Shown piece after piece: positions 577-19,040 of a stretch of 20,000 nucleotides of DNA. The notes below the pieces were generated by a model. It was given only the letters and a program-made list of their open reading frames with translations, was not told the origin of the DNA and ran no database searches. Position numbers and translations under genes: made by a program. Every line of letters starts with the position of its first letter. The first letter of the stretch is position 1. The DNA comes from Craspedostauros australis (lineage: Eukaryota). The stretch spans positions 47,517-67,516 of the forward strand of contig JALAGF010004012.1 of assembly GCA_030167865.1 (NCBI GenBank). Reading direction: 5' to 3'.

Positions 577-2655
577 CTACCGCCTTCGTCCTCTGCGACC
601 TGCTTCGGGCTTGCCACCGCTGTTGCCACCGCGTCTGCCCGGACGACCACGGTTGCTGTTGCTGTTGCCTCTGGGCTTGCCACGCTGGATCTTGCCACCC
701 GAGATGCCGCCCGGTCCGTAATCCGACTTGCGCGATGACAGACCGTCCAAGGGATCGCCCCTCTGGATGGCATTCTCGATGGCAATGGCCAGGACCTTGT
801 CGCGCTTGGCCACCAACGCCGTGACCTTGCCCTGCCCCGTCTTGCCACGCGCCGTGCGGCCGCTGCGATGCAGGTAGTCCAGGGGATTGAGGGGGAAGTC
901 GAACATGATGACGTGATCGACCTGCGGGATGTCCAGCCCACGCGCGGCGAGGTCCGTGCAGACGAGGATGCTCTCCTTGGGCTGGCCGCGGAACTTCTGC
1001 AGGTTCTCGTTGCGCGCGATGGAGTTGAGCTCGCCGTGATAGGCGTACATGGTGCTCTCGTCGATGCGCGCTTCGCCCAGCGCGTACTGGACGGCGCGGA
1101 CGGAGGCTGCCGTGTTGCAGAAGATGATGGTGGCGCCGCTGCTGTTGTCCTCGTCATCGACGTTTCGATTTCTGCGCTGCGTGTTGCTGACGACCGTGTC
1201 CACGAGGAGGGAGATCTTGTCCGTGCTGCCGACGTCGACGAAGATGTGCTCCATGCGCGGGACGGTCTTGTGCAGACCGGGAGCGGAGAGGATGGTGAAC
1301 TTGGGAAGGATGAGCTTGGCGGCCGCCTGCGGGTCCTTGGCGTAGTTCTTGCGCGCCGAGATGGCGAGGGAGGATCGCTTGGGGTTGTCGCCGATGAGAC
1401 GCTGCACGGCCTGCGTCATGGTGGCGGAAGTGCAGATGAGGCTGGGCGCGTCGGGCTTGAGCCTGAGGTCCCCGTCGTCGCCCGTGGTCTTGGGCGCGCG
1501 TTCGGCGCCGTTGACGTAGAGGAGGGGGTAGAGGAGCTGGCGCAGCTCGCGCGTGAAGCCCTGCTCCAGCATGGTGTCCATCTCATCGACGATGACGGTG
1601 TCGACGGCTCCCAGGAAGAGGGTCTGCGACTGCTTCCACTGCTGCAGGAGGCGTCCAGGCGTGGCGACGACGATGTCCACCGGACGCTGCTTCATGGCGC
1701 GCTTCTGCTTGCCACGGTCCTCCCCGCCCACGATGGACTGGCTGGATACCTTGACGGTGTGCGAGAGCTGCTTGAGGACCGTGGATATCTGGTGGACGAG
1801 CTCCCTGGTGGGCGCGAGGATGAGGACGCGGGGACGGCGCGGAAGACGCTCGTAGTTCTCGAAGACCTCCTGGTGCTTGATGCGCTGGATGGCCGGGAGG
1901 AGGTACGCGAGGGTCTTGCCGGATCCCGTGGCCGCCAGGAAGGCCGTGTTCTTGTCGGCTGCTATTCCGTCTGCGGTTGCTGCTGATTCGGGGCGAGGCG
2001 TGACGGACGCGAGGAGCCGAGGGATGACCATGGACTGGATCTTGGTGGGCGCCTCGAGACGCAGATCGTTCTCCAACACCTCCACGAGCTCCGTCCAGAG
2101 TCCCAGCCGATTCCATGAGTTGTCCGCCTGATCCGACTGCCCCGTGGAGCTGTCATCCGGAGAGTTGCGCGGCATGCGGACTGGCGCCCTGGACTTGGAT
2201 GCTGCGGATTGATCCGAGATGCCAGGGATGGAGGACATGGCAAGCCTGGTTGTGCGATGCTGAAGTTGTTGTTGTTGATGACGGTGTTGATGGTTGGAGA
2301 GCGTCGTTATGGATAGCTTAGATGATGTGAATGATGTGGCTGCCACGAAGGCAAGCGGCGAGCTCGTGCTGGATCTGCGGATGCTGCGATCCGAGTACTG
2401 AAACGCAGCTGATATCACCCGTGGTGATCTGGTGGCGGTGGCTGCCGCCATGGATGCCCGCTTGGCAGCCACGGAAGTGGAAGAGAGAGCGATTGCGAGC
2501 GACATGGTGACGAGTGCTGCTCTGAAAGCAGTGTGATTGCGGTTGCAACTTCGACAGTGACTGCGACTGCGTGCCGCTGATGTTCCAGCCAGTGTTGATG
2601 ATTGCGATTGTGGCTGAGACTTTGAATGCAGATGCCCTGCGGCGGAGGCCTTCAT
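577..2655 (-). CDS. RH39: DEAD-box ATP-dependent RNA helicase, RH39-like (plastid-type); intronless; start uncertain (ATG 2655 or 2505; ORF is open to 3030)
   Basis: All helicase motifs are present: Q motif (WNRLGL..PTKIQ), I ATGSGKT, Ia PTREL, GG, Ib TPGRL, II DEMD (1576-1587), III SAT, IV IIFCNT, V TDLAARGLD, VI HRSGRTAR. Segments PRRPRVLILAPTREL, ATMTQAVQRL, YHGEL and VDHVIMFDFPLNPLDYLHRSGRTAR..GKVTALV closely resemble plant RH39 as I recall it. It ends in an RG-rich tail, with stop TAG at 577-579. Confidence 0.92.
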   Translation of the reverse strand: MKASAAGHLHSKSQPQSQSSTLAGTSAARSRSHCRSCNRNHTAFRAALVTMSLAIALSSTSVAAKRASMAAATATRSPRVISAAFQYSDRSIRRSSTSSPLAFVAATSFTSSKLSITTLSNHQHRHQQQQLQHRTTRLAMSSIPGISDQSAASKSRAPVRMPRNSPDDSSTGQSDQADNSWNRLGLWTELVEVLENDLRLEAPTKIQSMVIPRLLASVTPRPESAATADGIAADKNTAFLAATGSGKTLAYLLPAIQRIKHQEVFENYERLPRRPRVLILAPTRELVHQISTVLKQLSHTVKVSSQSIVGGEDRGKQKRAMKQRPVDIVVATPGRLLQQWKQSQTLFLGAVDTVIVDEMDTMLEQGFTRELRQLLYPLLYVNGAERAPKTTGDDGDLRLKPDAPSLICTSATMTQAVQRLIGDNPKRSSLAISARKNYAKDPQAAAKLILPKFTILSAPGLHKTVPRMEHIFVDVGSTDKISLLVDTVVSNTQRRNRNVDDEDNSSGATIIFCNTAASVRAVQYALGEARIDESTMYAYHGELNSIARNENLQKFRGQPKESILVCTDLAARGLDIPQVDHVIMFDFPLNPLDYLHRSGRTARGKTGQGKVTALVAKRDKVLAIAIENAIQRGDPLDGLSSRKSDYGPGGISGGKIQRGKPRGNSNSNRGRPGRRGGNSGGKPEAGRRGRRR

Positions 2656-3773
2656 CGTTGTCGCTATGCTCTGATCGTTTTGGGCAACAAGTGAGAGACG
2701 CGGAGTGGAATATACTCGTGGTTGTGATGTCCCAACTTCTATTGCACGATGATGTATCTCAATGCACCCAGCTGCACAATGGAGCTCTGCTCTTGATCGA
2801 ACCTTTGCCAAGGTCGTCGGAATGGCAACAGAGAAAGACGAAGTGCAGCTCAGCAGCGATGTCGAAGGCAACAATGTCGATGTTGATGATGTTGTTGATG
2901 TTGTTGATGGGTTCCTTCTTCTGTTCCTCTTCGAGATGTTTCGGTTTCTGTTTGGAATTTGTGGTGTTTTTCGTTTGGATGTGGATGATTGGTATCTAAA
3001 CGTACACATGACGTACTGTATGCATGTCATCCATTATTGATTCCATCGACCACAGTTGTGAAGTCGAGCGACCCACTCGTCAGGCGCGAAACGCGAGCGT
3101 GAGTACCTCGCAAGGGCTTAGATGAACAGCGGAAGAAATGAACGCGGAGTGTCTTTGTGGTCTGTTGAGCTCGAAATGGCGTTGCTTTGCCTTTGGGAGG
3201 AGAAACGCGGTTGATGAAGAAGGGGTGGCGATGTGACTGAACTGTCGCTGGGTGACACGTATTTATGTTCCAATTGATATTGAGTGCATGTCGGAGTGAC
3301 AGGGAATTTGCCGCGCCTGTCACGCAAGAAATGAACGGAAGAGTCGCGAATCGCGAAAGAACGAATGGTGGCGGGATCAGACAAAGCGCGAGAGTTTGCG
3401 CGCCACGATGACGATGATGCGGAAACGACGGCGATGGTGGCAGCGCGGAGACGATGCGAATTCAAAAAGAATCAACGATGTGCACAATGGCAGCAAAGTC
3501 AACTTGGCACTGTGCTATACATCGTCTGTTTGAAGCACCACAGGAGCGTCCTCCCGGAACATCACAAGCCCTCCACATCTCAAGCCGAAGCGACAACAAA
3601 GACGACGGAGGAACAAGAAACAGCGGTTGGTCGAGTGCGGTCTGTAATACGACATCCAGAAATAGTGGAAACAGCGGAAAGCCCCATCGCATCCAAGTTG
3701 CTATACTACTAAGAGTGTTCGTCTGTGTGGACATCGTCAGTGTTGGTAGTCGGGCAAACTGCATGCCAGCAAG

Positions 3774-3996: not shown

Positions 3997-4286
3997 ATTC
4001 TACTATACTCCATTCGCGCACTCGCCTTCAAAAGCAGACGCCAACACAAACGCAGATACGAGATACTCCAGTGCAACAAGAGTGGAATACGCGCAGTTGG
4101 TGTCGATCCCCACTAACCAGTTGGCAAGCACATTCACGAGAAGGCGCACACAAAAACAGCATCAGCCACAACTGCAACTGCAATTGCAACAATCGACCGA
4201 CAGAACAACCAAGCCACAAAGCTACAGAGCAATAGAGCAATAGATCCATGCCGCTCATCATGCCACCCATCTGCTCCGATTCCACC

Positions 4287-7200
4287 ATGAGCACAAGCAA
4301 CAACAGGCCGCCTCATTCGCCTCACTCACCGCAATCACCGCAATCGCTACATGCAGCTTCGGATCATGTGCTCACGTCTCCCATCCAGCAGATGCGGGCC
4401 AAGCTCAAGAAGAAGGCGGCCAGCCGTGAGGAGATCGAGGCAGAGAAGCGCAAGCAGCAGCAGAACCTCACAAGGCAGAGGCAGAATGTGGCCAAGCTGG
4501 ATCTGGAGCGGAGGCAGGCAACCCTCATCCAGGCCGTGGTCAGGCGGTTCCTCACCAGGCTGCGTGTTGCCAAGCAATTCCCAAAGATGCAGTTCAAGTA
4601 CCGCAAGCAGAACAAGGAGAGGCTGCGTCTCAAGAAGCAGCAGCAGCAGGATACGGCCCTGCGCCAATCTTCCCATCACAACAACCAAAGCGATGCCACG
4701 TCGCTCTCATCTTCGGCGCACAACGCGGGATCGTCACACGTTCCCAACACGCCCAACGCCTCTTCCAAACCAGAGGTCGTTTCCATCTACAAATCGAAGC
4801 CGTACGGCATGGACGACGACAGCGAACACATCATCAAAAGTCCATTCCTCATGATGCGACGCAAGCTCAAGAAGAACAATATGCCACTCCTTCCATCCGA
4901 CAACGCTGTCAATGACGCAGATGACGATGACGCTCGTCGAGAATCCGATGCCTACGCAGCGCAGAAGAGACGTCAGAAGACGGCCTACGAATCGCGTTTG
5001 CAGGCGGCGCGCATGGATCTAGAGCGTCGCAAGGCAACCGTCATACAATCCCTCGTGCGTTCTTTCCTCGTGCGCAAGTCATGTGGCTTTCGATTCAACA
5101 ACACCGCGTCGTCTTCGGCAGCGACAGAGGCAACGCGCGAACCAGAAGATCGTCCAGGAGAATATTCCTACACGGCGCAGCTCAAGGACGAGCCGGACCA
5201 CGTCAAATCGCCAACATTCAGAACCAAATCAAAACCCTACAGAACGTCCGCGGCAAAGCATGCTCCCTCGAGCTATTCGCAATCACCGTACAGCTACACC
5301 ACGACGCCGACTCGCGGGCCCTCCAGAAAGCTCAACGTTCAGCACTTTAACGCTTCCGCTGCCTCCTCCACCGCATCAACGCCGTCCTACATCACCCAAT
5401 CGGCACCGACGCGCTTCAAGAAGTCGGTCGCCTCCAAGTTCGGTCCCCTTCTCAACAGCTCCAAACAGAATGATGGCAATGGCGACGACGAGGAACGCAG
5501 CAAAAGTCCCTACCTGGCCATGAAGCGAAGGCTCAGATCGTCGAAGCAATTACCCATGATTCCATCCACGGATAATGACAGCAACAACGATGACAACGGC
5601 AAAGACATGCGACAGACACCATCCCACCTCCTCTCACCATCGGAGGGATATCAGCGGCGCAAGACGATGCAGAAAACAGCATACCAGCAGCGTTTGGATG
5701 CAGCCAGGCATGATTTGGAACGGCGTGAGATCACCAAACTGCAATCCATCGCGCGCATGTTCCTCGTCCGCAACAAAAAACACCATCTACCACAACGGAA
5801 GGACGACCACAAACGGGGCACTCATGGCACGTACAACAAGAACAGAGTTCTGGACTACAATTCCACCCACACCACTTCGTCCTACGCCAGCTCCGCGCAG
5901 TATGCCACGCCCATAGTCACACCGCAGCAGGTCGACGACCGCCGCGTCTCGCCCAAGATCACACCGTCTGGCCGTTTCCCAAATGCCATCGGCGCCTTGC
6001 CTTTCGCCACTTCGCCCACAGCCGAATCCAATGGTGGCGAACACAACACCAAACCCAAATATCGCTTCCGATCCAATGCCAATACTACTGGGGGCAGCAG
6101 CGCAAGCTCATCTGCTCAGAACAGCCCGGTCTCGTCATCTTCCGCGCAGAATCGACACAATCTCAGACCCACCATGAACCATTCCCTCTCGCCCATCAGC
6201 AAGACTCCGGGTGGATACGTGCCGCCCGAACAACGTCGCACCACCTACGATTCCAGATTGGAGGCTGCCCGTCGCGACAACGAGCGTCGCGAGGCAACCA
6301 AGATACAATCCATCGTGCGCATGTTCCTCTCCAGGAAGAGGCACAACCCAAAATCCTTCCTCAGATCTGCAAAGCTCAAGAAGACGAGATCCTCCTCGTC
6401 CATTCCTACGAACACGCTGCGCAAAGGCAATCTATCGAACAATCGTGATTTCGATGGCAATGGGAAGCACGACGAAAGTGAAAATGTGGAAGACGATGAT
6501 GGCGAGATGACGTTGGCAGATATTGCCACGGTCATGAGAGACAGCAAGAAGCAATCCAGCCAGCACTTCGGACATTCCTCCGCATCCAGCTTCTTCGACA
6601 GCAACAGAGATGTGGACTTTGGGGATGACGCAGACGGCGATGACAAGGTCTCGAGGTTCGGAACCGTCAGCTCTGCCAAAAAGATCGCCAGCAGAAACGC
6701 TGACCAGACCAAACCGAAAACCTCAAAGCCAGTCAGAAGCAGCATCGTTCAGTCGCGAATGAAGAATATCCACAAGACGGCCTGGCAGACGAAGCAGCAG
6801 CAGAAGGCGGAGAAGGAGAAGGAGCTGGCATCCGCTACGACGATGAGCCTGCAAGATCGCATGAAGCATCTCAACACGAAGTCCATCTCCAAACGCCGCT
6901 CCAGTGTCGGTAGCAACCACAGTAAGACGGACTCGGCAGCATCCACATCGAAGTCAGCCGTCAAGCCGGCAGCCACCAGTAAGCCACGGCGCGTGGGACC
7001 GTATTCCAGAAGGAACATGAAAGATAAGGCACAGCCAGCACGGGCGATCCCATCGCCAAAACCAGCAGACGATGCGGAGATGACACGAAGCCGACTGAAG
7101 ACGAAGATGTGGAAGCTGAAGTTGCAAATGAAGTTGCTGCAGAACGAAATCGACGAGGTGAACACGACGGCGCCCACGTCGTCCGCGGCGCTGCAACGAC

Positions 7201-7466
7201 AGCAGCAAAAGCATAAGGAACGCCGATCCAACATGACGCTGTCCACGGAAGCGATGAAGAAGACCAAGATGAAGCGAACCAGCATATCGCCCAGAAGGCG
7301 CAGAGCACGGCCCACTGTCAATGCCGCAACCTTGAAGCAAAATTATACCGCGAAGCAGGAAGCGGGAGCAATTCGGCTACAAGCCTTCGTCCGCGGTTGC
7401 CTTTGCCGCGACCGTGTGAACGTTCTTCTCACCCAAATCTTAAGCGAGCTGAAGCAGCACACGTGA
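4287..7466 (+). CDS. Large, mostly disordered IQ-motif (calmodulin-binding) repeat protein, ~1059 aa, with five IQ motifs and a C-terminal coiled coil
   Basis: Uninterrupted 1072-codon ORF from 4248; ATG 4287 has the better context (TCCACC ATG). IQ motifs: IQAVVRRFLTR (4527), IQSLVRSFLVR (5043), LQSIARMFLVR (5739), IQSIVRMFLSR (6303), LQAFVRGCLCR (7377). Coiled-coil-like segment LKTKMWKLKLQMKLLQNEIDEV. Confidence 0.88.
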   Translation: MSTSNNRPPHSPHSPQSPQSLHAASDHVLTSPIQQMRAKLKKKAASREEIEAEKRKQQQNLTRQRQNVAKLDLERRQATLIQAVVRRFLTRLRVAKQFPKMQFKYRKQNKERLRLKKQQQQDTALRQSSHHNNQSDATSLSSSAHNAGSSHVPNTPNASSKPEVVSIYKSKPYGMDDDSEHIIKSPFLMMRRKLKKNNMPLLPSDNAVNDADDDDARRESDAYAAQKRRQKTAYESRLQAARMDLERRKATVIQSLVRSFLVRKSCGFRFNNTASSSAATEATREPEDRPGEYSYTAQLKDEPDHVKSPTFRTKSKPYRTSAAKHAPSSYSQSPYSYTTTPTRGPSRKLNVQHFNASAASSTASTPSYITQSAPTRFKKSVASKFGPLLNSSKQNDGNGDDEERSKSPYLAMKRRLRSSKQLPMIPSTDNDSNNDDNGKDMRQTPSHLLSPSEGYQRRKTMQKTAYQQRLDAARHDLERREITKLQSIARMFLVRNKKHHLPQRKDDHKRGTHGTYNKNRVLDYNSTHTTSSYASSAQYATPIVTPQQVDDRRVSPKITPSGRFPNAIGALPFATSPTAESNGGEHNTKPKYRFRSNANTTGGSSASSSAQNSPVSSSSAQNRHNLRPTMNHSLSPISKTPGGYVPPEQRRTTYDSRLEAARRDNERREATKIQSIVRMFLSRKRHNPKSFLRSAKLKKTRSSSSIPTNTLRKGNLSNNRDFDGNGKHDESENVEDDDGEMTLADIATVMRDSKKQSSQHFGHSSASSFFDSNRDVDFGDDADGDDKVSRFGTVSSAKKIASRNADQTKPKTSKPVRSSIVQSRMKNIHKTAWQTKQQQKAEKEKELASATTMSLQDRMKHLNTKSISKRRSSVGSNHSKTDSAASTSKSAVKPAATSKPRRVGPYSRRNMKDKAQPARAIPSPKPADDAEMTRSRLKTKMWKLKLQMKLLQNEIDEVNTTAPTSSAALQRQQQKHKERRSNMTLSTEAMKKTKMKRTSISPRRRRARPTVNAATLKQNYTAKQEAGAIRLQAFVRGCLCRDRVNVLLTQILSELKQHT

Positions 7467-7700: not shown

Positions 7701-9098
7701 TCAAAATGGCCAAGCGCAGGCGCTGCCATCATCACTGGTCTGTGGGACATTGGCAACGTCCAGCTCCCACCCATTCACATGCTCCCTCAAGAACAGATCG
7801 ATGTCTGGGATGAACGAACTCGAATCCGATGGCATTACGTCCGATATCTCATGCCCCGCGTCTCCTATGATGACAGTTTTCGTCATCCATCTCATGACAT
7901 TGCGCGTGCACTCCAGCGGTACATTCTTGTCACGTGATGCCAATATGAGGAGGGTAGGGATCTTTGTCGATGGTCCTGTTTCTCTTGTCGCTTCATCATC
8001 GCTCGTGTTGACATCGCTGCTGCTATCATTCTTCCAGCACTCTGCCAAGTCTTGCCCAGCTATCTCCATCACCTCATTTGTTTCCCAGTACTGCATCTGG
8101 GTATCCAGAATGTATTGTGCAGTCTGCGGTGGATGTCGCAGACCGTCGTATATGTCTTTCCTATCCGATGCCCCGGGGGAACCTGCTATGCAATGCTGCA
8201 AATACACAGCACGAGATTGGGGATGCGAGACGGGACACAACGGGATGCAAAAGTCAATCCCATGCCCTGGCTTTGGTTTGGCGCCTGCATCAGCATCTGC
8301 ATCTGTACATGCCAACTGTCGCATGACTTCCAACGCGAAGTAGCCGCCGCTGCTGCTGCCCATAACGCCAAATGGTACGCTGGCAGTAGTCGACAGCGTT
8401 TGACTGAACGCGGCCAAGGATTTGAGATCTTGCAGTGTCTTTCCAGTCTCGTGCGTCGTTACCGAACCGTCCCGGAAGGTTGCCGTGACCACGGTCATTC
8501 GCAGCTGTTTCACCAATGCTCGGGTGATGGTCTCGTGGCTGTCGTAATCGCCCTGGCTGAACATCCAGCCATGGATGAAGAACACGACAGCAGATGCTTG
8601 CGTTGGCTTCGTTGTGCGGACGTCGAGCGGTGACCATATCTTGATCGGAATGCCGTGTCCATCCTCCTGACTTTCGACTGTCGACATCTCTGTATGCACG
8701 GATGTGGTCAATGCTATCCGCTGGAATGACTCGGTTGGTCGTCTGCTACCTCCATCGCTCTGTTGCGTGTCGCTACATCTGCTTCCCGATGCTCCCATGC
8801 TGTCTGCGTGACACCGACCAACTGATGAAGCAAGCTGGTGATGATGACCAAGTCTGTGGCCGTAGCTTTGGCCGTGGCTGTGGCAGTGGTAGTTGTTGTT
8901 GTTGTTGTAGCTGCGCCCGAACCTACGTCCGCAATAATATGGCTGCGACGTGGAAGACCGAGCACGCACGAGCAGCACCGACGAATCTGTGATAAATGAG
9001 GCTCTGGCAGTGCTCTGCGATTTAAACGCAATGAGCGCAAACGAGGAAAGCAGCACTGACCAATGACGCTTCAGCCGTCTTTGCAACCGATTCACCAT
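7701..9098 (-). CDS. Alpha/beta-hydrolase fold esterase/lipase (HSL/abhydrolase_3-like); start uncertain (ATG 9098 chosen)
   Basis: FFIHGWMF oxyanion loop, GSSSGG nucleophile elbow (Ser at 8352-8354), LILASRDKNVP (Asp) and GDAGHEI (His) occur in the canonical order. The N-terminus MVNRL..SVLLSSFALIAF..ARASF looks like a signal/transit peptide. Stop TGA at 7701-7703. Confidence 0.82.
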   Translation of the reverse strand: MVNRLQRRLKRHWSVLLSSFALIAFKSQSTARASFITDSSVLLVRARSSTSQPYYCGRRFGRSYNNNNNYHCHSHGQSYGHRLGHHHQLASSVGRCHADSMGASGSRCSDTQQSDGGSRRPTESFQRIALTTSVHTEMSTVESQEDGHGIPIKIWSPLDVRTTKPTQASAVVFFIHGWMFSQGDYDSHETITRALVKQLRMTVVTATFRDGSVTTHETGKTLQDLKSLAAFSQTLSTTASVPFGVMGSSSGGYFALEVMRQLACTDADADAGAKPKPGHGIDFCIPLCPVSHPQSRAVYLQHCIAGSPGASDRKDIYDGLRHPPQTAQYILDTQMQYWETNEVMEIAGQDLAECWKNDSSSDVNTSDDEATRETGPSTKIPTLLILASRDKNVPLECTRNVMRWMTKTVIIGDAGHEISDVMPSDSSSFIPDIDLFLREHVNGWELDVANVPQTSDDGSACAWPF

Positions 9099-9743
9099 CA
9101 GCGTCAACACCTGCAGCAGTGCGACCCTCGTATGGTACCATACGATAGAATAGGGTTGGTAGAGTCTGATACATGTAGACGTCTCGTGGGTGTTGTGGGC
9201 ACCTCCTCGTTGATGTCCTGTGGTGGGTGTGATCATCATCGCCGCCACCCCCTTCTCTGCCAGTGTTGGGCAACATCCGAACGAGAGTGTTCGCATTCTC
9301 GTGATTGCTCGTGACCCACGTTGCAACCAGTCATGAGTTGGTGTCAAATACAAGAGAACATGTTGAAGACAAGCTATCTGATCGCAACTAGAAATGTTAA
9401 CAACTCCATTGGAGCGCCAACCAGAGTTTCAGCCATCCGCCCGCAAAAGTAGAGTCCTCACGCTCTCAGGATTGTGCTGGTACCCTTGGTTGAATACGAC
9501 TAATCCTCGTTTGGGGCAGGATGTTTTGTGTAGTTGGTATGGGTATGGTACGATTATTTGTTTGCTAATGTTCTACACGTATTATGCGATCTTCGTTCTA
9601 CGGTTTCATTCCATTGATGCGTTTACGGTGAGCAGTACTGACATCGAAGGTGCTCGAATTTACGAGGGATGGATGTGATGAGCTGAGACCTTGAGAATGA
9701 CATTGGGCGATGCAGGCTTGGACTGGTGTTGTGTTGCCTTTCT

Positions 9744-12700
9744 TCAGACAATGCCACCGTTGTCGCCCACGCCATCCTTGCTTTGGGCCTGCTCCTCCTC
9801 CTCTTCTGCGAGGTCATCGGAGAATTCGATTTCGATCATTTGTTCGCCGCATTGGTCGTGCTGTTCCTTCTTTGGCGTGTCGGTGGCAGCATCATCGCGC
9901 TGGGCATCGTGATCGGTGCCACTGGGACTGGAAAGCGATCGCTCGAAGGTGACCCTTGGGCTCCTGACGTTGCCGCCCTTCTTTTTCATGTGGCCGGTGG
10001 CGCCAGTGATGGGCGTGCTGCTTTCGATCGATTGGGACCTGCGGAACATGGCCTTGGGCTTGCCAGGCGATGCGAGAAGTCGCTTCGAATCTCCATGATC
10101 CGATCCCATCGAGGTTGACTTGAGGTATGCGCGACGGTGGCCGCTCGAGGGTGACATTCCAGCGGATGACGATCTGTAGTTGCTCGCCTTGGGAAGCGGT
10201 TCTATGTGACCGAACACGGAGCCGCGTCTGGATGGTTTGTCATGATGGACGACCTCCAGGTAATCTCGGAGCTCCTCACTGTCATCGTTTCCGAAATGCG
10301 GAAGGCTCTCCTTGAGCTGGCTCTTGCCGCAAATGCGGCAGATGGTCTGTGCCCACTGGAAGGCGATGTTCTTGGTGAGGTGACCCTGCTTCTCGTTCTC
10401 CTCCACCATGCGGTCCAGATGATGCTCGACGTCTTCGAGGTCGGTGTAGAAACGGAGCAACAGCGTGCCCTGTTCTGACACGAGCTTGAGCCGATCCTCC
10501 TTGATCTTGTGCCAGCGGAGATGGCGTGGCATGCTTGGGGTGACGTCCACTGGTTGCAAGGCAGAAGCAAGAACTTCGTCGACATCCTTCTGGGAAGCAT
10601 CGCTGTTGATGTTTTTGTTGTTGGCTGTCTTCTCCCAGAACTCGACGCGAGGTTCTGCACCCATGAAGTCGAAGTCGAAATGTTCGCTGAGGTCGGAGAT
10701 ATCATCGATTGGCATGTCGCGTTCGACATGCACCTCGCTGATTTCGGAGAGGTTCATGTGACCGACGATCTTTCGCCCCCTGGTGATGTCGCAAAGACGC
10801 AGGCCCTTGCCTCCCTTGGTGGCCTGGAGTGCCTGCAGGGCAGCATCCATGTTGTTGGACATCGCCTGGTCGTCACTGACCTCGAGGTAGACGATTTCGA
10901 ACTGAGTCATGATGACATCAACCGGCACCCATGTGTCCAGAAGCGGCAGCAAACGGCGGTCACAACGGCGCATGGATCGGACAATTCGTGCGCTGGGTGC
11001 GACGTAGGTGGAGAATTCATCCTCCCCTGCAGCTTCGTATGCCAGGCGCTCCAAGTCAACCTCGAACTCCAAAGGCTTCACGATTCGGGGCATGCCATCG
11101 GCGTGCTTGGGCGGTGTGGGGTCGAGGAGTGACACAGTGCCAACGCATGACTTCACTGGCTTTCCGAGCTTTCCGGCGATGATGATGCCCTGGGACTCGA
11201 CAGGCAGCTGCGCGTAGCGGGAGCCGATGAGTTTGAGGCGTTGCGCCGGTGCCGCGGAAGCGGCTGCTGCTCCCGAGCCTGCGTTTTTGGCAGCACCAGT
11301 GCCGTCCAGGTTGCTGATCAGGTGCGGCTGTTCGTCACCCTTCGATGGTCTGTTGTCTTCGCTGCCACGGCCTGAAATGTCGTTGAGGATTGGACCGCTG
11401 CTCAACTTTGGATCCTCCAGCTCCAAACCAAGCATCGCTCGGAACAGCTCTCCGCTGAACTCGCCATGCTTGGCGACGATGTCTGGGTACTTCATGACGG
11501 CCTTGTGCCAAAGCTCCAAGGCGCTGCCGCGCTCCTCGGTCATCGCTGTGCGCTCAGAGTCTGCGCCCAGGAGAAGTTCGCGGAAGGGCGACCTCTCCGT
11601 CTTGACGTGGTTGAGACTGTTCGAGATGTGCGCGCCATTCTTGGTTTCGCTGTCCTCGACGGATGTATCCTCCTGTCTCTGCTCGCCGGAGTTGGTCCAA
11701 TCGACGATCAACCGTGCGATCATGAATCGGAAGACGCGCAGGGCGATCAGGCCAGTGTACGGTTCGATGTGGCCGAGGCCACCGTAGGTGCGGACTCCCC
11801 ATGCCCGGCACACACAGAGGTAGATTGGATCGTAAAGGTTGTGCAGGTACGGATCGTAGTCGTCGTCGCCCTTGTCGTAATCCCCTGCCAGTCTTCTGTA
11901 GGATGGATCGCCCTCCAGGTACGAGCTGGGGGTGGTCTCTGCTTTGTCGCTGCCCGATTCGTAGCCAGATGCGCCGTTGTAGCTGCTGTCGCCGCCCTCG
12001 CAGCACCGCTCAGACTCTGCGTAAACCAGGATAGCCAAGCATGTGGAGGACAAGATCAAATCGATTGCGGCTGCGATCACTGCTATGCGCTCGCTCTTCG
12101 GGCTCGTCGTCTTGAACCGCATCAACCCAAGGACGATGAGAGATGCGATGATGAAGAAGATGTACCACACTGATTCCCACCAGAAGCTGACGCCGATCCT
12201 GAGCTCCCACGTCTGGTCACTGTTATCCAGGATCTTCTCCAGGGCCAGGAACGATTCGATGCGATTACCGATGAGGTAGTACACGACGACGCTGCCGAAG
12301 ACGTGGCTGATCGTGGCGTAGCGCTTGCCCATGAAGTAACGACGCAGGCGCATTCGGATGAGCGCTGGAGACAGCTGGGACATGAGGTCCGACATTTTGT
12401 CGCGCCACGTGCGCTGCACGTATTCGAACCGAACATTGGGCACGTCGGAGGCGGTCGAAGAGACGACCATGTCCACATCCACGTCGACCTCGGACAATTC
12501 GCCGACGGACTTGCCCGAATCCATAGAGGCTCTTTCATCGGAGGCATTGTCGTCCACATCGTCGTTTTTGCCGATGGTATTGTTGGCGGCCTTGTCAATG
12601 TTGGCATTGTTCTGCTTCTTGCCACTTCCGACTGGAACCATGTCAACGATGCGTTCATTTGCGTCATTGTCAGCATTGTTGCTGTTGATCCCGCTTCTAT

Positions 12701-14013
12701 CTGTGACATCATCGTTGCCCTCCAGATCGGCATTTGCATCGTGCATGGGGTCATCCTCGTGGTCGGAGTGGTGTTCCTCTTGCAACGGTCCGAGTCCACC
12801 CGGCAAGCCAGTATCCTGGACGGAATGATCCCGCCAGGACTGGATGATAGCAGACGCGGACACAGCCTTGTGACGGCTTGCACGGCGCGCTGCCTTGCGG
12901 TCGGCCCGTGTTGCAGGTCGTGTACCTCTCGCACCATGTACAGCAGCGATAGCAGCGGGCGTGTCACTTGCGCCAGCCTTGTTCAAACGGTCCAACGCGG
13001 AATCATCGAACGCTCTGTTGCCCATGTCCGCGCGATCCAAATGCGAGGCCTTGGTTCGCGGTGCAGATCCGAAGAAGTTGTCGTCGTTGTGCTCGTCGAC
13101 ACTTCCGAGGCCATTGGCCGTCCGGCCATTGTCAGAATCGAAGGAGCTGCTATTGGTGCTGGCCGTTCTGGATTGCAGGAAGCTTGGCGTTCCCATGGTT
13201 CGCATCATGGCAACACCATCCGACACAGTCTTGCGGTTGCGACGACGCGCCCGCGCTCGTTCCTGACGCGTTTGCAAGATGTTCCGCTCTTCTTCCGGCA
13301 AGCGTGATCGAAGCGCATCGGTGTCCGTCTTGACAAGTTTTGCCAGGAGCTGGGTCTTGTCGGACTCATCCTGCATCTGCTGCATCTGGAATATGGCGCC
13401 GGTCTTGCGATCCGCGCTGAGTGACTTCGTCAAGGGCCTCGCTCTCTGCGCACGGCTTCCAAAGCTCGCGCGCGTTTCTATGGTCATGTCGTCTTGGTAA
13501 CCGCCGGCGGCGCTGTTGGTGCCTGCGACGGTGTTCTCCGCTGCTGCGTTGGTGCTGCTGCAGAACATGACACCGCCGCGCCCATCCTGCAACATGAGCT
13601 CTCCTTCCTGCTGCTGCAAGATGGCGCGCAGCAACTTCTTTCGCTGCTGTTCACGCTGCGCCTTTGCGAGCTCGTGCTGCGCCAATGTTTGCTGCAGGTG
13701 CTTGGTTCGGATGAGATGTCCCATGCTGGTGCAGAGGGTGTACTGCGGGATGACCTTGCCCATGATGAAGCAGAAGACAGCGTAGCAGGACAGGACGGAG
13801 ATGAGGAAGTAGTACCACTCGATGGCTGCCTCCTTGGCGAGGTTCTGCCAGTAGATGAGGAGGAAGGCCAGGCAGATGGCGTAGCCGAACTGCATGACCT
13901 GGATGAGCGCGATGACGAGGTGCGGGTCACCTTGCCAGAACAGGTCGCGCTGCTGCTGCTTGTGGTATTGCTCCTCCTCTTCTCTCATGGACATACCGGG
14001 ACGTTTCCAGTTG
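9744..14013 (-). CDS. Exon 3 of the MLO-like gene (TM6-7, linker, VSD-like and PH-like domains, acidic tail)
   Basis: Open frame of 1423 codons to stop TGA at 9744-9746. Confidence 0.88.
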
Positions 14014-15568
14014 CTGTATTGATGCGTATTGTTTATGGAGGTGAAAGATATGAGCGTGGAGGTGAAGCAATACATGTGAGCTGTGTCGTGTCGTACTGCG
14101 AGGAAAGAGAATATGGAGTGCAATGCGCAGAGCAACTTACATGATGACAGAGAAGATGGATTTCATCTTGTTGTAGACGATGAGGGAGATGATGATGAAG
14201 CCGACGAGCGCCGCGAAGAAGACCGTCTTCATGACGATGCCGATCATCTCTGGATCCTCCGACTCGTAGACGACCATTCCGAGGATGTAGTACATGAGGT
14301 TGAGGGCGCCGATGAGAAGGAGCCACGCCACGGTGGAGATGTGGACGAGCTTGATGAGGACGGTGGACTCCGCCTTCTTGAGGTAGTCTGAGACCTTGAG
14401 TGTGAGGGGCAGACCGTTGGATTCCAGAAAGTGGATGCGTAGCTGGTGGAATCGCACCTGAATGAGGAGCTGGTTGTACTTGGCGACCTCCATGGGATAA
14501 CGGATGTTCATCCAGACGTTTCGCAATGCCTCGCGTATGCCGGAGCATGTGTAGTCAAAGGCGGTGAAGTACTTGCGGTTGTTCTCCACCATGTTGCGCC
14601 TTGTGGTGGTCATGCGCTTGATGTCGCTGTCCGTGGATGCATCGTCGGCGGGGTAGAGGCGGCTGTGCAAGCGTTCGAACTCCTCGCGGATCTCCACGTA
14701 GTGATCAATCTCCAAGGACTCCGTCTGCACCCAAAGCTTGTTGGAGACGCGCCACGACGCGAATGCGAGAAAGACGGACTGGAAGGCGTTGAAGATGGCG
14801 GTGTAGAAGAGGGTGAAGTGAACATCGGCAAAGACGAGCTCTCGTGGGACGTTGAGGTCCTTGTAGTACTTGACGAGGAGGAAGATGATGAGTTCCACGA
14901 TCCCCAGCGTGGACACTGTTGTGTGCGCGTGTGAAGAAGGGGAATGTAGCAGGGTAGAGTAGAGTATGGTGGTGATGCATATGCAGAGCGATGGTGAGAG
15001 GTGGCATAAGGAATGAGGAATGGGTGGGTAGAGAATGCTCCAGCATTGTATGATGGTGATAGAGTAGGAAGAGTGAAGAATGACAGACCACGCATCGCAC
15101 ACAAAGCATGGCATGAAGATGGTACTTACGTTCCTCCTTGACACCATCCAGGACGGAATGAAAGAAGGGACGGCCCTTGGCGGCAACGTCGAGATGATGC
15201 TTGACGATCTCCGCAATGATGAGAAGACCGAGCGTGATGATGCCGACGGCCAGGATGGAATAGTCGAGAGGTCTGCGGTACTCCGGACCTGCCAGCTGAC
15301 GTTGCGCGTGGTAGTCCTCATGGGTTTGATCGTACTGCGCAAAGAAGTTGACCTCCTCATGAGCACCCTGCGGATACTGGTATTGATTGTAGTCATTGTA
15401 TTGATTGTATTGATTGTGTCCATGGTGGTAGTGGTGGTGATGATGGTGGTGGTCCGTTGACACGAATGATGCAGAGAAGATGGAGGAGAAGAAGGAAAGG
15501 ATGCTCCAGTCGCCGCTGCCGTTGCTGTCGTTGGAGGAGAAGTACTCGTATCTCGCTCCGGATTCCAT
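9744..15568 (-). CDS. Three-exon gene join(15568..15130, 14915..14141, 14013..9744), ~1827 aa: MLO-like 7-TM domain + disordered linker + voltage-sensor-like 4-TM domain + split PH-like domain
   Basis: Two GTAAG...CAG introns join ORFs 14705..15895, 14137..15423 and 9744..14135 in frame (439+775+4270 = 5484 nt). Splicing creates KEELSTLGIVELII, matching the MLO KxELMLLGFISLLL motif. Further MLO-like motifs: VHFTLF, FHQLRIHF..DYLKK..LVHISTVAW, LFWQGDPHLVIALIQ, YTLCTSMG. Seven hydrophobic segments are present. Confidence 0.85.
14014..14140 (-). other. Spliceosomal intron 2 (127 bp, GT-AG) of the MLO-like gene
   Basis: Donor GTAAGT and acceptor AATACAG|C. AT+C = Ile, followed by NWKRPG in the frame of ORF 9744..14135. 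Confidence 0.85.
14141..14915 (-). CDS. Exon 2 of the MLO-like gene (TM2-TM5)
   Basis: In frame with ORF 14137..15423; high GC3 and hydrophobic helices; ends at AT|GTAAGT (phase 2). Confidence 0.85.
14916..15129 (-). other. Spliceosomal intron 1 (214 bp, GT-AG) of the MLO-like gene
   Basis: Donor GTAAGT, C/T/A-rich body, acceptor ACAACAG|TG. Removal restores the frame (C+TG = Leu) and the conserved KEEL..LG motif. Confidence 0.85.
15130..15568 (-). CDS. Exon 1 of the MLO-like gene (His/Tyr/Asn-rich N-terminus and TM1)
   Basis: Runs MESGARYEY...YSILAVGIITLGLLIIAEIVKHHL...GVKEE and ends at a C|GTAAGT donor (phase 1). An additional upstream exon cannot be excluded. Confidence 0.78.
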
Positions 15569-15583
15569 CTTGCCTGTCTCTGT

Positions 15584-15632
15584 CTGTGTTGTGTGTGTTG
15601 TGTGTGGTGTTGTGTTTGGCGTGTTGTGTCGT
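15584..15632. repeat. Degenerate GT/TGTTG microsatellite immediately upstream of the MLO-like start codon
   Basis: ctgtgttgtgtgtgttgtgtgtggtgttgtgtttggcgtgttgtgtcgt is directly visible. Confidence 0.7.
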
Positions 15633-16589
15633 TTGTTAAGACTGCGCTTTGCCGAAAGGAAGGAAGGAGGGAGAAGAATGAGATGAGATAGACCCAATGG
15701 AATTGAATGGAATTGGTTGCAGAACAAGAGAGTTGCAGATTGTGAGAGATGGTGAAGGGAGATGCAGATGATGAAAGCGCAATCGCAGTTGCAGACGCAG
15801 TTGATGGTCCAGAAGCAGAAGAAAGTGACGTCCGAGAATACTTGGATGAATGGGCAGATGAATGGACGAAAGGATCGCAGCTTGGCGGTATTCAATGTGG
15901 AGCAATCCAGATACAGGCCAGCTCAACTCAGCTCAGCTCAGCCTGGCTCGGTGCAATGTGCGAAAGAGAAAGGCCACTCACTCTGTGTCTCTCTGTTGGC
16001 TGCGGCCGTAGATGCGGCTGTAGCTGCTTCCACGAGTATTGGCTGACGTATATAATATGTATCTGTATCTGTGTTTGTACACGTCAACAACCAACAGGGC
16101 AGCCACCAAGTCGACGATCGGCAGTCGGAAGCTCGGTCAGAAGCCTGCGTTTGGGAGATGGGATGTGTTGCTATGTGTGCTTGTTTGTGTGCTTGCGTGT
16201 GCCGTTGTGGATGCGATGATGTGCGGGATTATGTGCCGCTTGTCCTCCTTCTGGTGCCTGTTCTCTGAGTAGGTACGAGTACTCGTGGGTAGGCGTGCCT
16301 CCTTCCTGCTGGGCACCTCCTCGACACCTTCTGAACGGCTTCTGAACAGCTTCTGCTTGGTGACGTCTTGACTTCTTCTTGTTGACTTGTTGCTGTCGCC
16401 GTTGCGAATCTTCCTGAATTTGAGTCAAAGTGGGATCAAGTCGAATCAAGTTGGAATCAAAGTGGAATGGAGGGCGGGGGGACTGTTGCTCGCAATTGCC
16501 GTTTGGAATCGTCTCTTGGGTTGGTTTTATGGGGAGTCTCAGTCGCGTGGATGCCTCCAACAACAGAGATTAGTAGTTGGTTGTATGGC

Positions 16590-17177: not shown

Positions 17178-17567
17178 CGGCGGGAGTTCGCAAAGGAGGA
17201 AACGACATCAAGCCATCCACGATTAAATTTCGAAATTCGAAGAAGGTGCGCGTCGATACGGCTTTTTGATTATTCGTGACTCGATCAGTCAACCGAGACT
17301 CATATCGTGTTTGGATTCCACAAGGAATCATGTTGAGGTGTCAAATTCAACGGACACCTTCGACAAAGCGACCAACCTGTCCTCGATGATGTTGGATGCA
17401 GAGTGGACCACATTCCACCAACGCTGTCATCCGCCTACCCAACATGTAACCACTCCACTCTGCTCTGCAGAATACTCCACTAGCCTTGCCTCCACTCAGG
17501 ACGAACGCAATCAGCACCTTCCTATCTGCCTCTCTCCATCCCTTTCCATCTCGCGGTCATCAGAATC

Positions 17568-19040
17568 ATGGGAGATCAAGAAACCACCGAGCCCGACAAA
17601 CCCAGACGGAGCAATGTCGACAGACGGAAGACGACGGAAAAGAAGCTGTCCGTTCTCCCACTGGTGCTGTTGCTAGTCGCATTGCTGATCGCATCGCAAT
17701 TCGCGGTCGCTGCCAGACAGGAGAGCCGCAATGGCTCCCAATTTGGCATCGCTGATGCCATGGATGACCCCTTCCAATTGACCGAAGTGCTCACAGAAGC
17801 CTCGGATCCCAACCTCGTTCAGGAGCAATCGGGGTCATTCAAGGATGTCCCCATCGGAAGATACAACCAGAACAACGTCACAGCAGGAACAGGCATGGCA
17901 GCATGCATACTGTGGAAGGATGACAACCACAACCTCATCGAATGGCTCGCCTTCCACTACCACAACATGCCACTGCGACGACTCATTATGCATCCGGATC
18001 CACGTGCCAAGACATCGCCGATGGAGATACTCGAACGATACACATCTCGTGGAATGATCGATGTGGATATCTGGAATGCCACCGTCGTTCTTGGCGATGC
18101 TGCACTGTCCGATGAGCGGTACGAGGCCATGAATCCCAAACAGCAGACGGATTACTTCCGCGGTCGGCAGCAGGAGTTCATGAGGAAGTGCTTCTTGCAA
18201 TTGCATTCGGAGGGAAAGTGGTCATGGGTCTCGACGCATGACAATGACGAATTCCTCATTCCCAATCAGCACGTGATGCCGGAATATCGCGTTGGGATCT
18301 CAGTCGATGATTCGCAGTCGTATCAGCAATCGAGAGACACGGAAACGGCAACCAACACATCGACGGCAACACAAGCGTCTGCGAACAAGGCTACGATACT
18401 CCCAACGCTGGACCGTATCACGATGATGGAGCTCCTGGACTTGGGAAGGCAGTCCAATATCTCCGCCATGATCTCGAGTCCCTGTGTCGGTTTCCGCCGG
18501 TTGCTGTTTGGATCTCGCGAGAGGAGCCGTGATATCGCAGCAGCCAACACGACGGAATTCGAAGGCATGTCCACCACCTGGAAGCAATCCAAGTTCCACA
18601 CATACCGGTGGAACTGGCACCTTCCGTTTCAGAACAGCGGCATGGGAAAGGCTATCGTGGATGTATCCGGCATCGACCCAGAGAAGGATCTGGGCAACCG
18701 CGCTTGCAATCCGCACAGACCGATCAAGGCCATCTGCACGCAAGGGCAAGGTCACATGAATGCCAACTTGTCGCCAATCATAGTTCATCATTACGTCGGT
18801 GATCGGCATCACTTCACATTCCGCGAAGATCCCCGGGCTGGTTTGAAATGGACTCGGACGGACGAAGTGTACGACCGAAATATCAAGCTGTCCACGATCT
18901 TCGATACCAACACGCGAGGCTGGGTCTCGGGCTTTGTCAGGAGCGTGGGTCACGAGACGGCGCAAGCTTTGTTGCAGGGTATCGGCGAGCGTCATGATGC
19001 GGTTCCTCCTGCCGAATTACAGCCAACAGACACAAGATGA
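17568..19040 (+). CDS. Type II membrane glycosyltransferase, GT92/GT2-like (GT-A fold, diatom-expanded type), 490 aa
   Basis: Short cytosolic N-terminus and signal anchor LSVLPLVLLLVALLIASQFAVAA. Motifs AACILWKDDNHNLIEWLAFHY..PLRRLI..DP...SP, RQQEF..C, DxD motif HDNDEF (18240-18251), KAIVD, NPHRP, HHYVG and REDPR. Confidence 0.82.
   Translation: MGDQETTEPDKPRRSNVDRRKTTEKKLSVLPLVLLLVALLIASQFAVAARQESRNGSQFGIADAMDDPFQLTEVLTEASDPNLVQEQSGSFKDVPIGRYNQNNVTAGTGMAACILWKDDNHNLIEWLAFHYHNMPLRRLIMHPDPRAKTSPMEILERYTSRGMIDVDIWNATVVLGDAALSDERYEAMNPKQQTDYFRGRQQEFMRKCFLQLHSEGKWSWVSTHDNDEFLIPNQHVMPEYRVGISVDDSQSYQQSRDTETATNTSTATQASANKATILPTLDRITMMELLDLGRQSNISAMISSPCVGFRRLLFGSRERSRDIAAANTTEFEGMSTTWKQSKFHTYRWNWHLPFQNSGMGKAIVDVSGIDPEKDLGNRACNPHRPIKAICTQGQGHMNANLSPIIVHHYVGDRHHFTFREDPRAGLKWTRTDEVYDRNIKLSTIFDTNTRGWVSGFVRSVGHETAQALLQGIGERHDAVPPAELQPTDTR

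Follow-up and report, generated by a model that had tools for sequence, protein, structure and literature searches.

The diatom Craspedostauros australis encodes, on the minus strand of the 20,000-nucleotide (nt) stretch of DNA analysed here (contig JALAGF010004012.1, positions 47,517 to 67,516; hereafter the window), an MLO-superfamily protein of 1,827 amino acids (aa) that carries two conserved, uncharacterised C-terminal modules in a widespread architecture. The explanation that we favour, with somewhat better than even confidence, is a long MLO-like diatom family in which a relative of the seven-transmembrane (7-TM) MLO proteins is followed by a linker, a four-TM bundle, and a helical block with a PH-like domain, and for which a channel mechanism would apply.

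Gene structure and family

Three minus-strand open reading frames (ORFs; 14705..15922, 14137..15891, and 9744..14162) can be joined through two introns, as a first-pass annotation of the window had proposed, to give a coding sequence of 5,484 nt that encodes 1,827 aa plus a stop and contains no internal stop codon (Table 1). Both donors read GTAAGT, with the GT at 15129-15128 and 14140-14139, and both acceptors read CAG, with the AG at 14917-14916 and 14015-14014, while the ATG at 15568 is the first in the exon 1 frame of an ORF that holds no ATG upstream of it. The closest homologue, P0001 (1,766 aa), is 56% identical to exon 3 at 100% coverage and 72% identical over 1,261 trimmed alignment columns, and it is the sister of the window protein with a Shimodaira-Hasegawa-like approximate likelihood ratio test (SH-aLRT) support of 100. 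Its residues are identical across junction 1 (...VLDGVKEELSTLGIVEL...) and near-identical across junction 2 (...IINWKRP...), and P0014, P0019, P0027, and P0028 likewise run uninterrupted across both. As intron 1 is 214 nt long, its retention would shift the frame. Splicing is not needed to connect the MLO part to the C-terminal modules, because a single 1,472-codon ORF contains MLO-like TM6-TM7 together with the linker, the four-TM bundle, and the C-terminal domain. A chance origin is excluded by the 40 homologues of the window protein found at E values from 0 to 1e-70, together with the matches of the C-terminal 741 aa alone to 338 clusters at E<=1e-3, 279 of them at E<=1e-10 (clustering at 50% identity; the best 150 representatives were viewed). 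A conservation profile of the 40 homologues resolves conserved blocks at residues 100-545; 626-675, 776-800, and 901-925; 951-1075 and 1126-1175; 1226-1275; and 1326-1525 and 1576-1675. An Rfam scan of the whole window returned no families. The region is one protein-coding, three-exon diatom gene that specifies one chain, and all of the module coordinates given by the first-pass annotation convert to residues of the modules described below.

The architecture recurs in other diatoms, where the same annotation had suggested that it be sought. Local hidden Markov models of five blocks, run on 174 stored homologues, revealed all five blocks in 62 of these, which sets the number of complete family members at no fewer than that; another 43 had all but the N-terminal MLO exons, 41 had the bundle, helical block, and C-terminal domain, and 28 were smaller fragments. 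TM1 begins 21 of the stored homologues, including P0120 (Grammatophora oceanica, 1,205 aa), which comes from a transcriptome assembly. Most matches are nameless, and all eight taxon names among them are diatom: Nitzschia inconspicua, Cylindrotheca fusiformis, Seminavis robusta, Fistulifera solaris, Mayamaea pseudoterrestris, and Grammatophora oceanica, six species that we take to be pennate diatoms, together with an MMETSP entry beginning 'Syned' and a Bacillariaceae metagenome-assembled genome. A stand-alone MLO form or a stand-alone sensor form was not seen in word-dependent, length-limited searches: a search of shorter proteins with the P0019 MLO region gave 103 matches, all apparently fragments of the same family, and a near-length search with the C-terminal domain gave 49 matches, all from short contigs and of the same family. 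The gene is not unique but belongs to a large family, with diatom names only so far, and public annotation already calls some parts of this family 'Mlo family protein'.

This family is systematically fragmented in public protein sets, and its architecture is largely invisible in annotation because prokaryote-style gene calling, and in part eukaryotic gene calling too, breaks the genes up or cuts them short. The splitting of the MLO domain over three ORFs that the first-pass annotation had pointed out in the window has its counterpart in the databases. Many database 'proteins' of ~228 aa (P0175-P0277) correspond to the exon 2 equivalent alone, called as a separate ORF. Several eukaryotic gene models, such as the Fistulifera protein P0183 (712 aa), end within the linker, P0208 ends at the start of the bundle, and the Seminavis protein P0053 is named 'expressed unknown protein'.

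The MLO-like module and the PH-like domain

Hydropathy analysis identified seven segments at residues 104-493 and further segments at residues 1020-1175, in line with the 7-TM MLO-like module of the first-pass annotation. The predicted topology of this module is N-out/C-in, with Lys and Arg enriched in the predicted inner loops and acidic residues in those outside, and both the number of TM segments and this bias are shared with plant MLO proteins (PF03094; barley Mlo, Arabidopsis MLO2/MLO6). Exon 3 matches the Pfam Mlo family PF03094 over its residues 19-125 (E 7.3e-6, 25.1 bits versus a cutoff of 24), a region that comprises TM6, TM7, and the proximal tail and that shows the strongest conservation of the protein's N-terminal half. 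The scan for this family covered 30 of the 40 homologues, P0031-P0040 being left aside as a set, and found a match at E<=0.01 in 24 of the 30, 11 at or above the cutoff and 13 below it. The match begins earlier in the profile for P0019, P0012, and P0025, at positions 147-241, corresponding to loop 2 to TM5, with a profile span of 147-383 in P0019 and of 230-455 in P0012. A precomputed PF03094 label is attached to 12 of the 40 homologues, and three bear 'Mlo family' names, among them P0019, 'Mlo family protein [Nitzschia inconspicua]'. TM1 and intracellular loop 1 align with P0001, P0014, P0019, P0027, and P0028, and a conserved helix-like segment with the consensus ..L.eTvA..rLeea.r follows TM7. 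Judged by its sequence, the window protein does belong to the MLO superfamily, though distantly, and is not a canonical plant-type MLO.

Four residues of the TM2 motif LGxVE (L, G, V, and E, the Glu being E154 of the window protein) and, in TM3, H179 and N189 are invariant in 19/19 full-length homologues. In two preprints from 2026, plant MLO proteins are modelled as trimers whose pore is formed along TM2 and TM3, and one of these preprints gives AtMLO6 G66, the site of a kink, S69, and T73 as ion-contacting. A conserved TM2 Gly with polar neighbours is common to plant MLO and the window protein, and E154 lies three residues after it, a spacing that matches AtMLO6 G66 to S69 when compared by eye, without an alignment; by this residue spacing, an invariant Glu stands where AtMLO6, as described in that preprint, has S69. 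By analogy with these models, E154 could form an acidic selectivity ring if the MLO-like domain trimerises.

At the other end of the chain, the cytosolic C-terminal domain is the beta-rich, PH-like domain anticipated by the first-pass annotation. In model m09ef128e0b25 its strands have predicted local distance difference test (pLDDT) values of 85-97, and seven of them (model residues 475-488, 491-502, 505-510, 548-553, 557-565, 638-645, and 649-654) form a sandwich that is followed by helices at model residues 655-698. All 32 matches listed by Foldseek against the PDB are PH-bearing: 17 to the Btk PH domain, 12 to GRK2, two to the ArhGAP9 PH domain, and one to CARMIL, where the GRK2 and CARMIL chains are those that we take to contain PH domains. 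The top match, 1btk_B, had an E value of 1.2e-3 and a probability of 1.00, with listed probabilities of 0.92-1.00 and none of the matches at E<=0.001, and the target-normalised TM-scores for isolated PH domains were 0.51-0.57. The named neighbours returned by the Atlas search were solely of the PH clan (PH_12, PH, PH_14, and ISP3_C), and their scores of 0.80-0.83 serve only as a lead. The structural model thus supports a PH-like fold for this domain, with the same seven-strand sandwich, C-terminal helix, and basic first-strand cluster as the PH domains of Btk (PH-TH), GRK2, ArhGAP9, and CARMIL, from which it differs in its 8-11% identity, its two large inserts, and the lack of a Pfam PH-clan match at E<=10. 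The invariant basic run RSMRRCDRR on the first strand is suggestive of phosphoinositide binding, and only that. Upstream of the domain, the conserved helical block is modelled as helices at model residues 297-326 (pLDDT 82-91).

The linker between the MLO-like module and the bundle, for which the first-pass annotation had proposed some 450 disordered residues, is indeed mostly unconserved and matches no Pfam family at E<=10, but it contains three short conserved blocks, at residues 626-675 and 776-800, both with an RRxxRxK.xS motif, and an acidic block at 901-925. From their sequence, the RRxxRxK.xS motifs are possible basophilic-kinase phosphorylation sites. The copies in the window linker lie at residues 660-675 and 780-798 (RRRNRKTVSDGVAMM and RRASRHKAVSASAIIQSW), and a third copy is visible in the homologue consensus.

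The four-helix bundle and the case for conduction

Model m09ef128e0b25, an AlphaFold2 model of residues 940-1680 built with 40 homologues (mean pLDDT 73.1, predicted template-modelling score (pTM) 0.51), contains four long helices at about residues 968-996, 1011-1035, 1044-1073, and 1155-1190 (pLDDT 82-95), which bears out the four additional TM segments of the first-pass annotation; most of the S3-S4 ectoloop and the inter-domain linkers have pLDDT values below 50 and are predicted to be disordered. A bundle-only model (m2d4b1e55d8dd, residues 950-1188; pLDDT 79.8, pTM 0.74) also has four long helices. The loop charges fit an N-in/C-in topology, and the positive-inside rule places the acidic Cys-bearing loop outside. 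Residue conservation was counted over 129 homologues with a complete module, out of 147 with any match. R989 and E1155 are present in 129/129, R1074 and C1075 in 127/129, R1146 in 126/129, C1140, P1156, and R1167 in 124/129, F1015, D1056, and R1164 in 123/129, E991 in 122/129, E1071 in 120/129, C1076 in 118/129, W1016 and C1063 in 115/129, and F1025 in 114/129. By helix position, F1025 of S2, D1056 of S3, and R1164 and R1167 of S4 are near mid-membrane, while E991 of S1 is in the outer third. The two S4 arginines are three residues apart; position +6 is hydrophobic, and a basic residue follows at +8 (position 1172) in 85/129 and at +9 (position 1173) in 60/129. The S2 acid is missing, position F+3 being A, G, or T and F+4 being Ser in 61/129 and Asp in 39/129. 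Ahead of S4 the ectoloop is strongly conserved, with its Cys and GxRTYGGLGxIEP motifs.

More safely, the bundle can be described in general terms as a charged sensor or regulator built of four helices. The earlier description of it as voltage-sensor-like is one that its topology and pattern of conserved charges suggest and that profile searches do not back: the window bundle has no Ion_trans (PF00520) match in Pfam at E<=10, where its lone, sub-threshold match is to Claudin_2 (E 0.0077), Ion_trans is absent from 30 homologues at E<=0.01, and it is likewise absent among the 25 Pfam families listed, out of 31, for 38 family members at E<=10. The Atlas feature search with the four-TM module gave scores of <=0.79 and no family. 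An origin of the bundle by internal duplication was considered and rejected, as hhalign probabilities for the four-TM block did not exceed 2.3% against either the MLO blocks or the C-terminal domain.

One explanation that we hold as possible, though well short of an even chance, is that the bundle is a true voltage-sensor domain (VSD) and the protein a voltage-gated, lipid-modulated MLO-type Ca2+ channel. In the part of a voltage-sensor review that deals with these features (PMC13095418), S4 carries a basic residue at every third position, and an S2 aromatic residue together with S2 and S3 acids forms the constriction site; the S1-S4 topology with both termini inside, the basic amphipathic pre-S1 helix, the spacing of R1164 and R1167 with further basic residues behind them, and the residue classes of F1025, D1056, and E991, which are those given for the constriction site and countercharges, all count in favour of this explanation. 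However, conservation is lacking at the S2 acidic position of the charge-transfer centre, and S4 has just two strict arginines with a hydrophobic residue at +6. Among the 46 matches listed by Foldseek against the PDB, five are to chains that we take to bear voltage sensors (TPC2, the Ci-VSP VSD, SpSLC9C1 twice, and AtTPC1; probabilities 0.07-0.41), but the other 41 are to assorted unrelated helical proteins, three of them pannexin chains, and none reached E<=0.001, the best E value being 1.6 with probabilities of 0.05-0.41 and TM-scores of <=0.32. Foldseek discriminates helical bundles poorly. The family profile A3 aligned S0-S3 in register with 3wkv_A ('Ion channel'), which we take to be a voltage-gated proton-channel chimera, and placed D1056 on the S3 Asp, but did so at E 1.9 and 9 bits, and profiles A1, A2, and A4 did not match this chain, leaving one of four profiles that did. 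A strongly conserved S3-S4 ectoloop of the Cys/GxRTYGGLGxIEP type is, moreover, unusual among voltage sensors and speaks against this explanation, as does the absence of Ion_trans from the Pfam results given above.

The voltage-sensor explanation also draws on the joint loss of its key residues: of the six homologues without D1056, five have no R1164 either, and F1025 is missing from each of the six without R1164. These losses represent only two to three events on the tree, so that no test, such as a sign test, can reach significance, and covariation of D1056, R1164, and F1025 was dropped as evidence because there are too few independent events. In two small subclades (P0086, P0093, P0094, P0139, P0153, P0165, and P0113), the Asp of S3, the first Arg of S4, and the Phe of S2 have been lost jointly.

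A second explanation, which we hold as possible to the same degree, well short of an even chance, is that the bundle is a module of the tetraspan type in which a disulphide-bonded ectoloop detects or binds an outside cue, such as wall, silica-deposition, or adhesion components or a ligand, with buried salt bridges in a structural role and the PH-like domain relaying the signal or anchoring the protein. The near-invariance of the membrane-adjacent residues C1075, C1076, C1140, R1146, and E1155, the outward-facing position of the acidic Cys-bearing loop, the sub-threshold Claudin_2 match, matches to MARVEL in two of 38 members (best E 0.13), and the pannexin chains among the Foldseek matches all point this way. 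Yet these Pfam and Foldseek matches are all at noise level, the large loop lies between helices 3 and 4 rather than between helices 1 and 2 as in claudins, and most of the ectoloop is predicted to be disordered.

In the long MLO-like family that we favour, the MLO-like domains would oligomerise and either form or control a cation (Ca2+) entry path, as proposed for plant MLO trimers, while the four-helix bundle and the PH-like domain would make up a built-in sensor or regulator, and the whole would act as a regulated Ca2+ channel. Coupling might run through the long S4 helix and the cytosolic helices; candidate stimuli are membrane potential, an extracellular cue at the ectoloop, and membrane lipids, which the PH-like domain may bind; and the linker, cytosolic and mostly disordered, may contribute phospho-regulation. 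A complex prediction for the P0001 MLO domain with the four-TM bundle scored 0.00 without alignments and with an uncertain partner fold, and weighs neither way.

Several results weigh against this proposal. The exon 3 Mlo match spans only positions 342-449 of the 483 in the profile, exon 1 alone and exon 2 alone have no Pfam Mlo match, and six of the 30 homologues scanned lack one, while the closest homologue, P0001, scores 20.6 bits and so falls under the cutoff. No cysteines are present in the N-terminus or the three predicted extracellular loops of the MLO-like module, although plant MLOs have four invariant extracellular cysteines (HvMlo C86, C98, C114, and C367) according to passages in a preprint, and Trp is absent from residues 494-550 after TM7, where the calmodulin-binding helix of plant MLOs has a quasi-invariant Trp, as described in a section of Kusch et al. 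2016 (PMC4824068). No profile places the four-TM bundle in any family, and the C-terminal domain (residues 1276-1680) matches no Pfam family at E<=10, including any PH-clan profile. A sequence search of the PDB with phmmer and profiles found no solved MLO structure, phmmer returning no matches and the profile searches otherwise yielding low-complexity matches or noise. Finally, the channel activity of MLO proteins is itself described as still debated in part of a preprint.

Plant MLOs have long been viewed as scaffold- or trafficking-type factors. A corresponding explanation for the diatom family, which we consider doubtful, is that the MLO-like domain is non-conducting and that the protein is a membrane scaffold or trafficking factor whose PH-like domain and linker recruit partners. 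The loose retention of plant pore-region features, with no extracellular Cys and with TM1-TM3 left unmatched by Pfam in all 30 scanned homologues, is in keeping with such a role, and passages in a preprint leave open that MLOs act indirectly by channel recruitment. The invariance of E154, H179, and N189 within TM2 and TM3, however, disfavours it, because buried polar or charged residues in these helices are costly unless functional, and part of Gao et al. 2023 (PMC9810639) reports calcium-channel activity for MLO. A more specific version of the voltage-sensor explanation, which we judge unlikely, is that a minimal working voltage sensor comprising two gating arginines, the S3 Asp, and the S2 Phe would gate in cis a Ca2+ pore of the MLO, non-P-loop type, under additional lipid control by the PH-like domain. 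That the gene is an artefact, either two neighbouring genes wrongly joined or a pseudogene, is highly improbable: exons 1 and 2 do require splicing inferred from the sequence, and no supporting evidence for an artefact was found, but the MLO part and C-terminal modules share one uninterrupted ORF, all 1,827 codons are stop-free, and the architecture recurs, complete or lacking only the N-terminal exons, in the 62 and 43 stored homologues described above, one of them transcriptome-derived.

Known systems, surroundings and meaning

The window protein differs from plant MLO in being three times longer, with an added four-TM bundle and PH-like domain, and in having a first extracellular loop of merely ~11 residues. 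Kusch et al. 2016 (PMC4824068), in the parts concerned, describe topologically diverse MLO-like proteins in chromalveolates and MLO-EF-hand fusions; these fusions carry EF hands, whereas the window protein carries a four-TM bundle and a PH-like domain. The word 'diatom' does not occur in the main text of that paper, and Phaeodactylum, Thalassiosira, Fragilariopsis, and 'Bacillariophy' do not occur in the supplementary file searched, nor do five motifs of the C-terminal modules, although some cells of that file are incomplete. The supplement does list, in the portion concerned, an MLO-like protein of Ectocarpus siliculosus with 1,187 aa and 10 predicted TM segments, which might share the extra membrane module. 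We found no description in the literature of this architecture, of diatom MLO-like proteins, or of a protein that links an MLO with a voltage sensor or a PH domain.

In its layout, the window protein comes closest to the sperm Na+/H+ exchanger SLC9C1, which, as set out in part of the voltage-sensor review (PMC13095418), has its parts in the same order: a non-P-loop transport domain, then an S1-S4 bundle whose long S4 helix continues into cytosolic helices, then a beta-rich regulatory domain in the cytosol. SLC9C1 has no detectable sequence relationship to the window protein; its S4 has six charges and its constriction site is the canonical Y/E/D, as given there, versus two strict arginines and no S2 acid here, and its cytosolic domain is a cyclic-nucleotide-binding domain in place of the PH-like domain. 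Voltage-sensor-only proteins, such as Hv1 and the Ci-VSP VSD, resemble the window bundle in their four helices and in carrying an Asp on S3 and a Phe on S2 at similar depth, but the weak matches to 4g7y_S (Foldseek) and 3wkv_A (profile) are neither significant nor reproducible.

The coordinates of the gene, its modules, and its neighbours are collected in Table 1. At residues ~40-63 (window 15380-15451, minus strand), the poorly conserved N-terminus contains a His-rich run (HHHHHHHYHHGH) and then an NQY tripeptide repeat that stems from a 9-nt tandem repeat at 15380-15417, a stretch not kept in homologues. The genes on either side bear no relation to the MLO-like gene.

Table 1. Positions in the window and in the protein of the MLO-like gene, its predicted modules, and the neighbouring genes
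Feature	Window positions	Strand	Residues	Remarks
Exon 1	15130..15568	-	1-146 + first base of codon 147	N-terminus, MLO-like TM1, intracellular loop 1
Intron 1	14916..15129	-		214 nt, GT...AG; homologues continuous over junction
Exon 2	14141..14915	-	147-405	MLO-like TM2-TM5 and large intracellular loop 2
Intron 2	14014..14140	-		127 nt, GT...AG; homologues continuous over junction
Exon 3	9744..14013	-		
MLO-like TM1	15203-15259	-	104-122	hydropathy peak 2.55
MLO-like TM2	14857-14913	-	148-166	hydropathy; invariant LGxVE motif
MLO-like TM3	14755-14823	-	178-200	hydropathy
MLO-like TM4	14284-14352	-	335-357	hydropathy
MLO-like TM5	14173-14241	-	372-394	hydropathy
MLO-like TM6, TM7 and proximal C-terminal helix	13638..13958	-	TM6 437-458, TM7 471-493	Pfam Mlo match region
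Cytosolic linker	12378..13592	-	~546-950	conservation profile; mostly unconserved
Second membrane module	11658..12377	-	951-1190	basic amphipathic pre-helix, S1-S4, ectoloop
S1	12240-12311	-	973-996	
S2	12120-12191	-	1013-1036	
S3	12018-12086	-	1048-1070	
S3-S4 ectoloop		-		~85 aa, Cys-bearing
S4	11703-11759	-	1157-1175	runs on as long helix
Conserved helical block	11403..11552	-	1226-1275	consensus ...LELWe.Ai..yPdIVekYGeFSgELfQaMLGl
Cytosolic C-terminal domain	10203..11252	-	1326-1675	conserved
Predicted PH-like beta-sandwich core	10317-10988	-	1414-1637	two inserts and C-terminal helix
C-terminal tail, Ser/Arg-rich	9744..10202	-	1676-1827	poorly conserved; pLDDT below 50 at start
Stop codon	9744-9746	-		
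DEAD-box helicase (DEAD + Helicase_C)	580-3033	-		
IQ calmodulin-binding-motif protein	4236-7463	+		1,076-codon ORF; Pfam IQ E 3.8e-17
Alpha/beta-hydrolase-fold protein	7704-9428	-		25.6 bits vs cutoff 25
Weak GT92-like ORF	17484-19037	+		20.8 bits, under cutoff 23

MLO proteins have been proposed as Ca2+ channels only recently, and their mode of gating is left open in the parts of the preprints and papers that address it. The fusion of an MLO-like module to a candidate sensor is a 'Rosetta stone' of the type sought by Kusch et al. 2016 (PMC4824068) in the passage concerned; it suggests which inputs can be wired to the MLO fold and offers an experimentally tractable construct, and the large diatom family to which it belongs is a candidate component of diatom Ca2+ signalling. 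If the bundle were indeed a minimal voltage sensor that gates such a pore, diatoms would provide the first known case of an S1-S4 sensor coupled to an MLO channel, and the family would represent a new class of voltage-gated Ca2+ entry and give direct evidence for a gated pore in the MLO fold.

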